Below are positions 9,809-16,132 of a DNA stretch of 64,000 nucleotides, piece after piece (position 1 is the stretch's first letter; the number at the start of each line of letters is the position of its first letter). The stretch is from NCBI RefSeq assembly GCF_003334405.1, contig NZ_QOWM01000002.1; one strand, given 5' to 3'. The notes beneath the pieces were generated by a model. The model saw nothing but the letters and a program-made list of their open reading frames with translations, searched no databases and was not told where the DNA came from. This DNA comes from Escherichia coli (GTDB lineage: Bacteria > Pseudomonadota > Gammaproteobacteria > Enterobacterales > Enterobacteriaceae). Position numbers and translations under genes: made by a program.

Positions 9809-10705
9809 ATGGACATTTTTATTTCGAAAAAGATGCGCAATTTCATTTTATTAGCGCAAACCAATAATATTGCCCGGGCGGCAGAAAAAATCCATATGAC
9901 GGCTTCGCCATTTGGTAAAAGCATTGCCGCGCTGGAAGAACAAATTGGCTATACGCTATTTACCCGCAAAGATAATAATATCAGCCTCAATAAAGCCGGA
10001 CAGGAACTGTATCAAAAACTGTTCCCGGTTTATCAACGGCTTTCTGCGATTGATAATGAAATCCATAACTCAGGGCGTCGTTCACGAGAAATTGTGATTG
10101 GCATAGATAATACTTATCCGACAATTATTTTCGATCAGTTGATTAGTCTCGGAGATAAGTATGAAGGCGTGACCGCCCAGCCAGTTGAGTTCAGCGAAAA
10201 TGGCGTTATCGATAATCTTTTTGACCGCCAGTTAGATTTTATTATCTCCCCACAGCATGTATCTGCACGAGTTCAGGAACTGGAAAACCTGACTATCAGT
10301 GAACTACCACCGCTGCGATTAGGCTTTCTCGTTTCTCGCCGTTATGAAGAGCGACAAGAGCAAGAGCTGCTTCAGGAGCTGCCCTGGCTACAAATGCGCT
10401 TTCAGAACCGGGCCAACTTCGAAGCAATGATTGATGCGAATATGCGACCTTGTGGGATCAATCCAACCATTATTTATCGTCCCTACAGTTTTATGGCCAA
10501 AATCAGCGCCGTGGAGCGCGGACATTTTCTGACGGTGATCCCGCATTTTGCCTGGCGACTGGTGAATCCGGCAACGCTGAAATATTTTGATGCACCGCAC
10601 AGGCCGATGTATATGCAGGAATATCTTTATTCAATCAGAAATCATCGTTATACCGCCACGATGCTTCAGCATATTGCTGAAGATCGTGACGGGACGAGTC
10701 ATTAA
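9809..10705 (+). CDS. ygfI: LysR-family transcriptional regulator
   Basis: 298 aa from MDIFISKKMRNFILLAQTNNIARAAEKIHMTASPFGKS (HTH); the track start at 9794 is extended. Confidence 0.8.
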   Translation: MDIFISKKMRNFILLAQTNNIARAAEKIHMTASPFGKSIAALEEQIGYTLFTRKDNNISLNKAGQELYQKLFPVYQRLSAIDNEIHNSGRRSREIVIGIDNTYPTIIFDQLISLGDKYEGVTAQPVEFSENGVIDNLFDRQLDFIISPQHVSARVQELENLTISELPPLRLGFLVSRRYEERQEQELLQELPWLQMRFQNRANFEAMIDANMRPCGINPTIIYRPYSFMAKISAVERGHFLTVIPHFAWRLVNPATLKYFDAPHRPMYMQEYLYSIRNHRYTATMLQHIAEDRDGTSH

Positions 10706-12180
10706 CCCAGCATCGAGCCGGTTGCAATTAAATTACGGTGTAAGTCGAAGACGTGGCTAAGATCGTGGTGAATATGTCCGCCAGGCGCATTTTCCAGATA
10801 GCGATGCAGATAATCCCGATACATAGGATGTGCACAATTATCAATGATAGTGCGGGCGCGTTGAAGCGGGGAAAGACCGCGCAGATCGGCGATCCCTTGT
10901 TCGGTGATGATCACTTTGACGCTGTGTTCGCTGTGATCAACATGGCTGCACATTGGCACGACGGTTGAGATCTTGCCTTCTTTAGCAATCGACGGGGCCA
11001 TAAAGATCGACAGATACGCGTTGCGTTCAAAATCACCGCTGCCGCCGATGCCGTTCATCAGATCGACCCCGGCTACGTGTGTTGAGTTGGCATGCCCGTA
11101 AATATCAAACTCCAGGCCGACGTTCAGAGCGATGACGCCCAGACGACGGATGATTTCCGGGTTATTGGAAATCTCCTGCGGACGCAACACAATGCGGCTG
11201 GCAAAGTAATCCATATTGTCGTAAATCTTGCGCAGGGAATCGGCCGAGATTGTCAGGCTGGAGGCGCTGGCCCCGCTGATTTTGCCGGTTTCCAGTAAAT
11301 GCACCACCGATTCCTGTAGCACTTCCGAATACATCATAAACGGAGGAATTACCGGGTTTTCCCCCAGACGCGCCATTACCGCATTATTGATATTGCCCAC
11401 GCCACTTTGCAGCGGCAGAAATTCCGGCGGAATACGCCCATGCGCTATTTCCTGCAATAAGAACGTGACCACGTTATCGGCAATCTGCTGGCACATGGGA
11501 TTTTGCTTATCCAGCATATTACCGGCGTCGGGCAAGTTGGTTTCCACGACGGCGACAATCTTTTTCGGATCGATTTGCACATAGCGGGTACCGACGCGAT
11601 CCATTGCATGGAAGATCGACACGCTATTGCGCCGCGGTGGCGCGCCAGGAATCACAATATCCGCCAGTTCTGCAACGCGCGGATCGTGATAGTGATTGAG
11701 TTCAATGATCACTTTCTTCGCCCGCAGCAGCCAGGTCGGCGCATTACCGATCCCGCTGGTTAACCAGACTCGACCATCCGGTGCCAGTGCCGATGCTTCA
11801 ATGACGGCAACATCAATGTCGCCGAAGAAACCGTAATTGACCATTTGCGCCACTTCGCTCAAATGCAGGTCAACGAAACTCACCGCGCCCTGATTGATCT
11901 TTTTACGTAAACCGGACGATGTTTGATATGGCGCACGCCAGGAAACAGCATCGGCGTCAGAAAGTACATCGTCAGCGGCGGCGCTGATTGACGCACCCGT
12001 CAGAAGGCGAATTTGATACGGCTTTTTGGCCTCATGCTGTTCGTTAGCTCTGCGGGCAATCGCGGTGGGTAGGGCTTTCGGCGAACCCGCCGGGGTAAAG
12101 CCGCTAAATGCCACCATGTCGTTATGCTGGATAATTTCTGCCGCTTCATTGGCGGTCATCCTTGTCCACTGAGTTTCCAT
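10702..12180 (-). CDS. scpC: propionyl-CoA:succinate CoA transferase
   Basis: 492 aa CoA-transferase family protein; last gene of the sbm operon. Confidence 0.9.
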   Translation of the reverse strand: METQWTRMTANEAAEIIQHNDMVAFSGFTPAGSPKALPTAIARRANEQHEAKKPYQIRLLTGASISAAADDVLSDADAVSWRAPYQTSSGLRKKINQGAVSFVDLHLSEVAQMVNYGFFGDIDVAVIEASALAPDGRVWLTSGIGNAPTWLLRAKKVIIELNHYHDPRVAELADIVIPGAPPRRNSVSIFHAMDRVGTRYVQIDPKKIVAVVETNLPDAGNMLDKQNPMCQQIADNVVTFLLQEIAHGRIPPEFLPLQSGVGNINNAVMARLGENPVIPPFMMYSEVLQESVVHLLETGKISGASASSLTISADSLRKIYDNMDYFASRIVLRPQEISNNPEIIRRLGVIALNVGLEFDIYGHANSTHVAGVDLMNGIGGSGDFERNAYLSIFMAPSIAKEGKISTVVPMCSHVDHSEHSVKVIITEQGIADLRGLSPLQRARTIIDNCAHPMYRDYLHRYLENAPGGHIHHDLSHVFDLHRNLIATGSMLG

Positions 12181-13995: not shown

Positions 13996-16132
13996 GATGC
14001 TGGCTTATCAGATTCAGTACGTCGCGCACACTGTCGAGCATAGGTGTACCTGGACCATAAATCGCCGCCACGCCGCGCTCTTGCAGGAAGGCGTAATCCT
14101 GCGGCGGAATGACGCCACCCGCGACCACGCAGATATCTTCGCGTCCCCATTTTTTCAGCGCTTCGACCAGTTCCGGGATCAGCGTTTTATGACCGGCAGC
14201 CAGTGAGGATGCGCCCACTACGTGAACGTCGTTTTCTACGGCCAGGCGGGCGATCTCTTCAGGTGTAGAGAACATCGGGCTTAAATCTACGTCGAAACCG
14301 AGATCGGAATAGGCGCTGGCGATCACTTTCGCGCCGCGATCGTGTCCATCCTGGCCCATCTTAGCGATCAGAATGCGCGGGCGACGACCATTGTCGGCAA
14401 GGAACTGCTCCGTTTGCGCAACAATGGCATCGAACTCGGAGGCCGATTTCTCAGACTGATGATAGCTTTGCGCAATCACGCCGGTAACACACTGGCTTGG
14501 CACCAGATAACGGTCGAAAGCGACTTCCAGCGCATCGGAAATTTCACCCAGGGTGGCGCGAACGCGAGCGGCATTAACAGCGGCAGCCAGCAGGTTTTCG
14601 TTATGCTGTGCGGCGTGAGTCAGGGCGTTCAACGCGGCGGTTACGGCGGCATCATCACGGGTGGCGCGAATGCGTTCCAGCGAAGCAATTTGCTCGTTAC
14701 GCACCATCACGTTGTCGATCTCAAGTACATCGGTTTCGTCTTCGTGATCCAGTTTGTACTTGTTGACACCAACGATGACACGCTTGCCCTGGTCGATCAG
14801 CGACTGTTCGCGCGCTGAGGCCTCTTCGATCATTCGTTTTGGCAGACCTGCTTCGATCGCTTTCGCCATGCCACCGGCTTCGTCGATCTGTTGGATAATA
14901 GCTCTGGCTTGTTTGACGATTTGATCGGTCAGCGACTCAATGTAATAGGATCCGGCCAGTGGATCGACGGTGCGGCAGAGTTCTGATTCTTCCTGGATGA
15001 TGATCTGGGTGTTGCGGGCAATGCGTGCTGAGAAATCGGTAGGCAAACCAAGCGCTTCGTCAAAGGCGTTGGTATGCAGTGACTGAGTACCGCCCAGCGT
15101 CGCAGCCAGCGCTTCAATGGTGGTGCGGATAACGTTGTTATACGGATCCTGTTCAGTCAGGCTCCAGCCTGAGGTCTGGCAGTGGGTACGCAGCGCCAGT
15201 GATTTCGGGTCCTGTGCGCCAAATCCACTGACCGCTTCGCTCCATAAATAACGTGCCGCACGCAACATGGCGACGTTCATAAACAGATCCATGCCGATGC
15301 CGAAGAAGAACGACAGGCGAGGAGCGAAGTCATCAATTTTCAGTCCGGCAGAGATTGCTGCTTTGATGTACTCAATCCCATCAGCGAGCGTAAATGCTAC
15401 CTGCTGCACGCAGTTGGCACCCGCTTCACCCATGTGGTAACCGCTGATACTGATGGTATTAAATCGCGGCATGTTGCCGGAACACCAGGCGATGATGTCG
15501 GCGATAATGCGCATTGACGGTTTTGGTGGGTAAATATAGGTGTTGCGGCAGAGGTACTCTTTGAGAATATCGTTTTGAATGGTGCCGGTCAGTTTATCAG
15601 GTGTAACACCTTGCTCTTCTGCGGCGACGATATAAAACGCCAGTACTGGTAGCACTGCGCCATTCATGGTCATCGAAACCGACATTTTATCCAGCGGGAT
15701 CTGGTCGAACAGGACTTTCATATCTTCCACGGTGTCGATAGCGACGCCCGCTTTGCCGACGTCGCCCGCCACGCGCGGGTTATCGGAGTCGTAGCCACGG
15801 TGGGTGGCAAGGTCAAACGCAACGGAAAGACCTTTTTGCCCGGCGGCCAGGTTACGGCGATAAAAAGCGTTGGACTCTTTTGCTGTTGAAAAACCAGCAT
15901 ACTGACGGATGGTCCACGGTTGGGCGGTATACATAGTGGCACGCGGGCCACGAACGTAGGGCGGCAAACCAGGAAGGGTACCTGTCACCTCCAGATTATC
16001 GAGATCGGCTTCGGTATACAGCGGCTTGATGGCGATCCCTTCCGCGGTTTGATGAACCAGCGAGTCGACAGTTTTCTCCCGACGGCTCAATTCCTTGTTG
16101 GCAAGCTGTTGCCACTCCTGCACGTTAGACAT
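13988..16132 (-). CDS. scpA: methylmalonyl-CoA mutase (sleeping beauty mutase)
   Basis: 714 aa from [15 protein letters not shown]...; B12-binding C-terminal region with DxHxxG-type motif ([11 protein letters not shown]). Confidence 0.95.

Follow-up and report, generated by a model that had tools for sequence, protein, structure and literature searches.

Three described systems lie close to the locus considered here. The Wood-Werkman pathway of Propionibacterium comprises the MutAB mutase, a methylmalonyl-CoA epimerase, a biotin transcarboxylase and a CoA transferase. In Propionigenium modestum and Veillonella, succinate is converted to propionate and CO2 via succinyl-CoA and methylmalonyl-CoA, the decarboxylase being membrane-bound, biotin-dependent and Na+-pumping. 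In the human MUT-MMAA and Methylobacterium MCM-MeaB pairs, a mutase and its chaperone operate from propionyl-CoA to succinyl-CoA, in an anaplerotic or catabolic role. Closest of all is the sbm operon of E. coli K-12 (Haller et al. 2000; EcoCyc/RefSeq b2917-b2920), with which the present locus - part of a stretch of 64,000 nucleotides, hereafter the window - shares position, gene boundaries and products with zero differences.

Region 10400-16700 shows 100% nucleotide identity to E. coli K-12 MG1655 and many other strains, and the RefSeq annotation of 10702-16132 is the same as in MG1655 (scpA/sbm, meaB/argK/ygfD, scpB/ygfG and scpC/ygfH, all on the minus strand; Table 1). The locus is therefore real and annotated, and a chance pattern is excluded: scpA-meaB-scpB-scpC is the chromosomal "sleeping beauty mutase" operon of E. 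coli K-12. This operon is already known, so the observation is correct but ordinary, and nothing new in itself. An earlier note on this DNA had described four intact genes with "tight spacing or overlaps". Open reading frames lie at exactly those positions, in agreement with RefSeq, and the junctions measure -8 nt (scpA/meaB, an overlap), +10 nt (meaB/scpB) and +23 nt (scpB/scpC). All four begin with ATG and end with TAA, and translation, the check proposed in that note, revealed zero internal stops and no frameshift in any of them. A program-made list of reading frames includes longer starts for scpA (TTG at 16153) and scpB (GTG at 13031), but the shorter starts are favoured by the RefSeq annotation, by the 261-residue chain of 1EF8 and by orthologues of 714 and 261 residues in other genera; the ATG of scpA is preceded by a GGAG Shine-Dalgarno sequence 7 nt upstream. 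A scan of the operon region gave 11 terminator-like matches (7.3 +/- 2.4 in shuffles) and two promoter-like matches (5.7 +/- 2.6 in shuffles), with zero of the latter on the minus strand. With one strand, short or overlapping junctions, and internal terminators and promoters not above chance, the four genes have the character of a single operon and are predicted to be co-transcribed.

Table 1. Coordinates of the genes and candidate regulatory features of the locus, in positions of the window.
Feature	Position	Strand	Description
srsR (ygfI)	9809-10705	+	LysR-family regulator; RefSeq srsR; convergent with scpC
scpC (ygfH)	10702-12180	-	family I CoA transferase (propionyl-CoA:succinate CoA transferase per RefSeq), 492 aa
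scpB (ygfG)	12204-12989	-	biotin-independent crotonase-fold methylmalonyl-CoA decarboxylase, 261 aa
meaB (argK, ygfD)	13000-13995	-	G-protein chaperone of the mutase, 331 aa; 8-nt overlap with the scpA stop
scpA (sbm)	13988-16132	-	adenosylcobalamin-dependent methylmalonyl-CoA mutase, 714 aa; RefSeq scpA
argP-scpA intergenic region	16133-16335	-	203 nt; presumed to hold the operon's promoter/operator
Conserved dyad GGCGGCAAAAAACGA-N13-TTTTTTTTGCTGGCGACAA	16199-16244	-	candidate for an operator or a leader hairpin; ~70-110 nt ahead of the scpA ATG
Hairpin past the argP stop (GCCTGATAGCACATATCAGGC)	16302-16322	-	no more than a weak T-run behind it on the minus strand

Each of the four proteins scores above the cut-off of its curated NCBIfam equivalog or subfamily model in profile searches. 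ScpA reaches 1252 bits against the equivalog NF006944 (cut-off 876) and combines an N-terminal substrate barrel (TIGR00641, residues 27-547) with a C-terminal B12-binding domain (TIGR00640, residues 583-713). It matches the human, P. shermanii and M. tuberculosis mutases at E <= 1e-268, among them human MUT (2XIJ/8GJU, E 2e-278 over residues 6-707) and 1REQ chain A (E 5e-270). The base-off/His-on cobalamin motif DxHxxG is present as D595-G-H597-D-R-G600, and in the alignment the surrounding 11 residues are those of human MUT. Interconversion of succinyl-CoA and (2R)-methylmalonyl-CoA by ScpA with adenosylcobalamin has been reported (Haller 2000, Dayem 2002 and Kannan, as cited in PMC5512728).

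The neighbouring meaB adjoins scpA in all Enterobacterales and Methylococcales loci. Its product scores 494 bits against the equivalog NF006958 (cut-off 329), carries the P-loop GTPGAGKS from residue 61, ETVG at 153 and NKDD at 200, and aligns over its full length with 2P67, the E. coli YgfD structure deposited as 'LAO/AO transport system kinase' (E 1.5e-219), as well as with Methylobacterium MeaB (2QM7, E 2e-89) and human MMAA (2WWW, E 1e-77). The gene had been named argK in the earlier note, which was right as to its location and intactness; the label itself is a legacy misnomer for a MeaB-type GTPase chaperone (NF006958, 2P67). Froese and colleagues are said to have described, in 2009, a physical interaction of the chaperone with its client mutase.

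MeaB and ScpB match the solved E. coli structures 2P67 and 1EF8, respectively. ScpB scores 487 bits against the equivalog NF008506 (cut-off 257) and aligns over its full length with 1EF8/1EF9 and 6N92-97 (residues 1-261 for 1EF8, E 1e-172); the active-site residues H66, G110 and Y140 are present, and are invariant in 12 homologues down to 52% identity. ScpC passes both TIGR03458 (YgfH_subfam, 752.6 bits, cut-off 658.7) and NF053853 (ScpC, 602.9 bits, cut-off 500), and gives full-length alignments with 2NVV (E 2e-164) and with AarC 4EU3 (E 1e-130). Its catalytic glutamate lies in YSE(285)V, and the GxGG oxyanion motif is found as GIGGSGD at 377. ScpC also exceeds the cut-off of an NCBIfam model that bears the name succinyl-CoA:acetate CoA-transferase, which leaves some doubt as to the acid it prefers in vivo; the biochemistry behind the pairing of propionyl-CoA with succinate reportedly goes back to Haller in 2000.

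Taken as a whole, the best explanation, and one we consider probable, is that the four products work as a cycle converting succinate to propionate and CO2. ScpA would turn succinyl-CoA into methylmalonyl-CoA, with MeaB loading and protecting the mutase's cofactor; ScpB would decarboxylate methylmalonyl-CoA to propionyl-CoA and CO2; and ScpC would use propionyl-CoA as the CoA donor for another succinate, so that propionate is set free and succinyl-CoA is formed anew. Such a cycle would require imported cobalamin. The identities, intactness, motifs, gene order and purifying selection behind this explanation come from the present analysis, and the enzyme activities from the literature. Like the Wood-Werkman pathway, the module employs an adenosylcobalamin mutase acting on succinyl-CoA and a CoA transferase that recycles CoA onto succinate, but ScpA is a single fused protein of the large-subunit type in place of the MutAB alpha/beta heterodimer, a crotonase-fold decarboxylase releases the carboxyl group as CO2 where the biotin transcarboxylase would transfer it, and in the loci inspected an epimerase was found neither inside nor adjoining the cluster. 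The overall conversion and its two CoA intermediates are those of P. modestum and Veillonella, whereas ScpB, with its crotonase fold (1EF8), is soluble and biotin-independent, and no energy is conserved by it as an ion gradient. The likeness to MUT and MMAA or to MCM and MeaB extends to both partners, and the adjacent, overlapping scpA and meaB imply the same chaperone-client relation; here, in contrast, the decarboxylase would pull the reaction in the reverse direction.

The upstream region agrees with a weak or activator-dependent promoter. No sigma-70-like site with at least 9/12 matches was found on the coding strand in 10300-16700, and a relaxed scan of 16100-16420 gave 7-8/12 at best, the top match overlapping the scpA start codon. 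No Rfam family, the cobalamin riboswitch included, matched 16133-16335 at the gathering threshold. The promoter check that the earlier note had suggested for this interval thus returned no sigma-70 consensus, which fits the reported weak expression, and the note's remark that the operon is poorly expressed and of unclear physiological role matches the literature (PMC3850637; PMC5512728). Silence in the laboratory would most likely reflect either a weak promoter or an activator that is required and not engaged. The hairpin past the argP stop was scored as terminator-like for the plus strand only, and weak termination of argP could permit read-through into scpA. The dyad further downstream was aligned across five genera in which the module occupies different neighbourhoods. 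In 2 Mb of loci its pattern matched 39 times, 38 of these on the coding strand ahead of scpA and each of those 38 spanning 30 nt, with a single match within the 64-kb window; on folding, the dyad gives an A-run/U-run hairpin (z-scores between -1.1 and -3.4).

What, then, can be said of the operon's function? The order scpA-meaB-scpB-scpC is kept in Enterobacterales, Methylococcales and Lentisphaerae, which argues for the four products working together. That the operon is instead a decaying remnant, strictly cryptic, without present function in E. coli and kept in K-12 by chance, strikes us as very improbable. In favour of the remnant, E. coli is incapable of de novo B12 synthesis and the operon is barely expressed in laboratory strains (PMC3850637). 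One ancestral deletion of ~4.3 kb is, moreover, common to 1114 of 5426 complete E. coli genomes, with IS-mediated losses in others; a large and successful lineage thus does without the operon. Yet many genera preserve the gene order and the gene lengths, catalytic residues are invariant, the four reading frames are intact, and ~79% of complete E. coli genomes retain at least 80% of the region (4276 were counted as 'intact'). Against E. albertii, dN/dS is 0.015 for scpA, 0.058 for meaB, 0.016 for scpB and 0.031 for scpC, as low as in the neighbouring housekeeping genes (argP 0.008, yggE 0.028). Where retained, the operon is not decaying, and this purifying selection largely refutes the remnant. 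Another account, unlikely in our judgement, takes the four genes as an incomplete pathway in which ScpA makes (2R)-methylmalonyl-CoA, ScpB takes only the (2S) form and an epimerase is lacking in E. coli; succinate could not then be converted to propionate by the native module, which would instead act on methylmalonyl-CoA or propionyl-CoA from the breakdown of amino acids (threonine, isoleucine). Gonzalez-Garcia et al. 2017 (PMC5512728) regard the native operon as incomplete in vivo: ScpA gives (R)-methylmalonyl-CoA while ScpB is thought to use the (S) form, propionate formation required either rich medium or the supply of a Propionibacterium epimerase, with none arising from glucose in minimal medium without that enzyme, and operon expression enabled isoleucine consumption. 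In line with this, a non-rigorous check of the taxa and loci inspected turned up no epimerase-sized or epimerase-like gene beside the cluster. However, the mutase, decarboxylase and CoA transferase are clustered in three distant lineages without an adjacent epimerase, which is hard to explain if the mutase product never reached the decarboxylase. Haller et al. 2000, as related in PMC5512728, reported in vitro activities and a coupled ScpA and ScpB assay from succinyl-CoA to propionyl-CoA, and in the hands of other groups these genes alone, expressed with cyanocobalamin, yielded propionate or 1-propanol from glucose or glycerol, while the wild type made none (PMC3850637). An epimerase could, moreover, be encoded elsewhere, or epimerisation could be spontaneous or promiscuous. 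The earlier note's reading of a functional, B12-dependent succinate-to-propionate module accordingly holds as regards intact genes, but function does not follow from intact frames alone, and completeness in vivo is disputed (PMC5512728 versus PMC3850637).

The proposal of an inducible catabolic operon under the LysR regulator SrsR/YgfI, which would act through the upstream dyad, with silence due to the absence of the co-inducer from laboratory media, refines the succinate-to-propionate cycle and does not contradict it; we hold it tentatively, with somewhat less than even confidence. The stop codons of srsR and scpC overlap on TTAA (4 nt), and every Enterobacterales locus with sufficient flank has an srsR orthologue immediately beyond scpC and convergent with it, across at least six chromosomal neighbourhoods. 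At E <= 1e-50 SrsR has a small set of orthologues (56 clusters), found in the taxa that carry the operon, and three of three reciprocal look-ups from these orthologues land beside scpC. That srsR and the dyad, with its fixed 30-nt spacing, accompany the operon in Enterobacterales suggests a candidate dedicated regulator that has gone unrecognised. Three of the four post-deletion genomes inspected carry an srsR with S92*, W193* or a C-terminal lesion, and the co-inducer of SrsR is described as unknown (PMC9181523). On the other side, genomic SELEX with purified SrsR, performed without ligand, yielded 10 loci and none at scp; a search of 16133-16335 allowing up to two mismatches gave no match to the published SrsR box TCAGATTTTGC; genes for LysR regulators typically diverge from those they control, whereas srsR is convergent; the Methylococcales and Lentisphaerae clusters are without the regulator; and adjacency could merely mirror co-transfer. 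A bolder version, speculative and on the unlikely side, would make the Enterobacterales operon a five-gene mobile module, with SrsR/YgfI as its dedicated ligand-responsive switch acting via the candidate dyad, laboratory silence stemming only from the missing co-inducer, and srsR having decayed once the ancestor of the ST131/E2348-69 (phylogroup B2-type) lineage, a large one, had lost the operon by deletion.

The scp operon has been biochemically and structurally characterised and is widely used in metabolic engineering (propionate, 1-propanol, odd-chain polymers). The comparative data narrow the question of why it is under strong purifying selection despite its silence in the laboratory, and of what turns it on. 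They single out srsR as candidate regulator and 16199-16244 as candidate operator, and they provide a natural knockout population in about one in five of the complete genomes sequenced; each of these is open to direct testing. If the five-gene module proved true, the published 'stress-response' regulon of SrsR would be secondary to an ancestral role in control of the operon.

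The earlier note described 10702-16132 as a complete sbm-argK-scpB-scpC operon in which all genes are intact and tightly spaced or overlapping. Its coordinates for the four genes are exact, and translation, run as the check for frameshifts or premature stops, yields no internal stop in any of them. Each gene runs from ATG to TAA, scpA overlaps meaB by 8 nt, the meaB/scpB and scpB/scpC junctions measure 10 and 23 nt, and every junction carries a plausible ribosome-binding site. Longer alternative starts appear in the mechanical ORF list (TTG at 16153, GTG at 13031); the shorter starts match RefSeq, the 261-residue crystal-structure chain and the orthologues of 714, 331, 261 and 492 residues in Yersinia, Kosakonia and Sodalis. 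RefSeq places argP upstream of scpA on the same strand. Downstream, the stop codons of scpC and the convergent LysR-family gene srsR (ygfI) overlap on the palindrome TTAA (10702-10705), so the 3' ends of the two transcripts must be antisense to each other; Yersinia and Kosakonia (comparison loci L005 and L010) share this 4-nt overlap.

Features of the scp locus, in window coordinates
Feature	Position	Strand	Length	Description
scpA	13988-16132	-	714 aa	ORF without internal stop; RefSeq: methylmalonyl-CoA mutase
meaB/argK	13000-13995	-	331 aa	ORF without internal stop; RefSeq: mutase-associated GTPase
scpB	12204-12989	-	261 aa	ORF without internal stop; RefSeq: methylmalonyl-CoA decarboxylase
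scpC	10702-12180	-	492 aa	ORF without internal stop; RefSeq: propionyl-CoA:succinate CoA transferase
srsR (ygfI)	9809-10705	+		LysR-family gene, convergent with scpC
Dyad GCGGCAAAAAAYGA-N13-TTTTTTGCYGGCGACAA	16199-16244	-		Kept upstream of scpA in module-bearing genera

The identification is correct and the earlier note's interpretation essentially holds, and the locus is a textbook-level, already characterised operon of E. coli K-12: K-12 MG1655 and many other strains show 100% identity across window 10400-16700, and none of 5426 complete E. coli genomes lacks the region entirely. Each of the four proteins scores above its curated NCBIfam cut-off (score/cut-off in bits: NF006944 1252/876, NF006958 494/329, NF008506 487/257, TIGR03458 753/659), with ScpC additionally passing a model named succinyl-CoA:acetate CoA-transferase. 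ScpB and MeaB match PDB 1EF8 and 2P67, respectively, over their full lengths, human MUT aligns with ScpA residues 6-707 (E 2e-278), and 2NVV and AarC structures align with ScpC. Characteristic residues are likewise in place: the DxHxxG motif of ScpA at 595-600, the P-loop, ETVG and NKDD of MeaB (a MeaB-type chaperone, for which 'argK' is a historical name), H66, G110 and Y140 of ScpB, and the YSEV glutamate and GIGGSGD of ScpC. Horizontal acquisition was rejected on base composition, the genes having 49%-55% G+C against 52% for the window, which is not anomalous.

The best-supported reading is the published succinate-to-propionate account, with enzyme activities taken from the literature (Haller et al. 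2000, as far as summarised in PMC5512728) and engineering work with the operon genes described in PMC3850637. On this account MeaB would load and protect ScpA, which would convert succinyl-CoA to methylmalonyl-CoA with adenosylcobalamin made from imported B12; ScpB would then decarboxylate methylmalonyl-CoA to propionyl-CoA, and ScpC would pass the CoA to another succinate, releasing propionate. The further claim that the operon is a functional module holds for gene identity and layout, but its completeness is disputed. Gonzalez-Garcia et al. (PMC5512728) obtained propionate in glucose minimal medium only after adding a Propionibacterium methylmalonyl-CoA epimerase, and took the native operon to encode an incomplete pathway, reasoning that ScpA produces the (R) enantiomer, whereas such decarboxylases are thought to use the (S) form. 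Against this, the mutase-decarboxylase-transferase trio is conserved as a unit without an epimerase, a comparative pattern which argues that the mutase product may reach the decarboxylase; in ORF listings beside the clusters of Methylococcales and Lentisphaerae, we saw no obvious epimerase candidate of ~140 aa, judging by the listed sizes. Some Lentisphaerota clusters with scpA-scpB-scpC, lacking meaB, carry a family III CoA-transferase (PF02515, a family that includes 2-methylacyl-CoA racemases) directly after scpC (L007/L008 5557-11643; L066 4809-11051), and this enzyme could substitute for the missing epimerase.

Comparative data lend the published account further support. A scan by ScpB alignment, taking one genome per species, returned 80 loci. 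Enterobacterales and Methylococcales keep the order scpA-meaB-scpB-scpC throughout, and Lentisphaerae keep scpA-(meaB)-scpB-scpC. ScpB homologues with no more than 59% identity (Acidobacteria, Deltaproteobacteria and others) are mostly encoded by solitary genes, with the full cluster still present at one Lentisphaerota locus (59%) and one Lentisphaerae locus (58%). Pairwise dN/dS against E. albertii is 0.015 for scpA, 0.058 for meaB, 0.016 for scpB and 0.031 for scpC, in the same range as the neighbouring argP (0.008) and yggE (0.028), and the operon genes are therefore maintained by selection and not drifting; more distant comparisons, in which dS is saturated, were given less weight.

At least 80% of 10702-16335 is present in 4276 of the 5426 complete E. 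coli genomes, and a single deletion junction is common to 1114 (20.5%). Carriers lack about 4.26 kb (window ~10856-15113), bounded by imperfect 15-nt copies of TCAATGRTRGTGCGG in scpC and scpA, together with another 57 bp nearby (15153-15209). With these losses meaB and scpB are gone entirely and scpA and scpC for the most part; some 150 nt of scpC persist, as do the first ~0.93-0.97 kb of scpA (seen, for example, at 3040-3280 of L002, a carrier locus). Among the carriers are O25b:H4 (ST131-type) strains and derivatives of O127:H6 E2348/69, which we take to belong to phylogroup B2, and the deletion is probably a single ancestral event in that phylogroup. We found no literature on it among open-access papers. 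An independent, IS1A-mediated deletion in the poultry isolate MB51 (L003 5070-6576) covers the 3' part of srsR, scpC, scpB, meaB and most of scpA. With the shared deletion present in a fifth of genomes, the operon is evidently dispensable for a large, successful lineage, yet it is strongly constrained where retained. Of 5433 places matching the operon region, one is on a plasmid and not on a chromosome.

What might drive expression was sought upstream of scpA. No coding-strand site in 16133-16335, the region proposed earlier for a promoter check, reaches 9/12 of the sigma-70 consensus, and a relaxed minus-strand scan of 16100-16420 gave 7-8/12 at best, the top match overlapping the scpA ATG; a sigma-70 consensus promoter was therefore rejected here. 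Across 10300-16700 the consensus scan yielded only two promoter-like sites, fewer than the 5.7 +/- 2.6 of shuffled sequence; both are intragenic and lie on the plus strand. Inspection by eye gave no sigma-54 match upstream of scpA, and a CRP-like half-site pattern, CTTGAATCACATCACA at about 16260-16275, that is kept among close relatives only. A cobalamin riboswitch or other known RNA upstream of scpA was also rejected, there being no Rfam match near the operon at gathering threshold over the whole window; the only matches are ordinary K-12 features, namely 6S RNA (ssrS, 20816-20999), SibC antitoxin RNA opposite ibsC (20017-20167), naRNA4 (34510-34587) and ES036 (6903-6945). The T-run behind a hairpin downstream of argP (16302-16322) is only weak on the coding strand, so that low-level read-through from argP is conceivable. 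The scans, the Rfam result and the hairpin agree with the reported near-silence of the operon, which is hardly expressed owing to a weak or inactive promoter (PMC3850637), and the earlier note's statement that it is poorly expressed is in keeping with that report.

A dyad conserved upstream of scpA has a core of fixed length (30 nt), AAAAAAYGA-N13-TTTTTTG, with GCGGC and GCYGGCGACAA on its flanks, and lies about 100 to 280 nt from the ATG, depending on the genus. A regular expression for it has one match in the 64-kb window and 39 in 2 Mb of loci, 38 of them upstream of scpA on the coding strand, although the expression was derived from the sequences searched and the count is thus partly circular; all 38 span 30 nt and vary in their interior. 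The dyad can form an A-run/U-run hairpin, at modest z-scores of -1.1 to -3.4. In Yersinia the left arm is altered without compensation, which speaks for a site of protein binding rather than for an RNA structure. We accordingly do not claim a hairpin or terminator and regard the dyad, from its pattern of conservation, as a candidate operator.

Wherever an Enterobacterales locus has sufficient flanking sequence, the gene following scpC is a convergent srsR orthologue, as in Escherichia, Citrobacter, Salmonella enterica subsp. arizonae and diarizonae, the Klebsiella oxytoca group, Yokenella, Kosakonia, Yersinia, Sodalis, Acerihabitans, Superficieibacter and Hafnia. The five-gene module (window 9809-16132) was seen in comparison loci L005, L010-L012, L013-L064, L072, L073, L076, L084, L096 and L097, including two entries under the name Aeromonas and one under Martelella alba. 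It occurs in at least six gene arrangements, the argP/yggE flanks being confined to the Escherichia/Citrobacter/Salmonella/Klebsiella/Yokenella group, and this number of chromosomal neighbourhoods suggests that the module may move as a unit. Enterobacterales-type modules under the unlikely names of a 'Bacillota bacterium' MAG, 'Martelella alba BGMRC 2031' and 'Aeromonas sp. RU39B' (L035, L050/L012, L063) probably reflect contamination, mislabelling or recent transfer; the MAG contig, of 4.8 kb, carries argP and scpA-scpB with 94-96% protein identity to E. coli. In Aeromonas sp. MdU4 (L097 13956-14897) the module is divergent from BMC shell, PduV/EutP and EutQ-like genes, another B12-linked system.

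SrsR orthologues are few (56 clusters at E <= 1e-50) and confined to operon-carrying taxa, and all three reciprocal look-ups led to genes adjoining scpC. In deletion carriers srsR is often inactivated too: among four genomes (L002 2108-3004, L094 608-1504, L093 934-1830, L095 869-1765), two have S92* (one also W193*), E2348/69 has an altered C-terminus and M16807 an intact gene. Genomic SELEX with SrsR gave ten targets, none at scp, the strongest site lying in a K-12 prophage (PMC9181523). Allowing up to two mismatches, the published 11-bp box TCAGATTTTGC matches 31 times in the window, where 23 +/- 4.5 matches are expected; it was rejected at the operon, since the scpA upstream region has no match. 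Searches of the open-access literature yielded no publication that connects ygfI with the mutase operon. That SrsR is the operon's cognate regulator is a tentative proposal, and one we consider less likely than not. Between argP and rpiA, a 76-aa ORF annotated 'LysR substrate-binding domain-containing protein' (17371-17601) looks like the remnant of a LysR-family gene.

The only new angle here is the comparative case for a five-gene module with a conserved operator-like dyad and a lineage-wide natural deletion. Together, module, dyad and deletion bring the old question of what activates the operon within reach of experiment.
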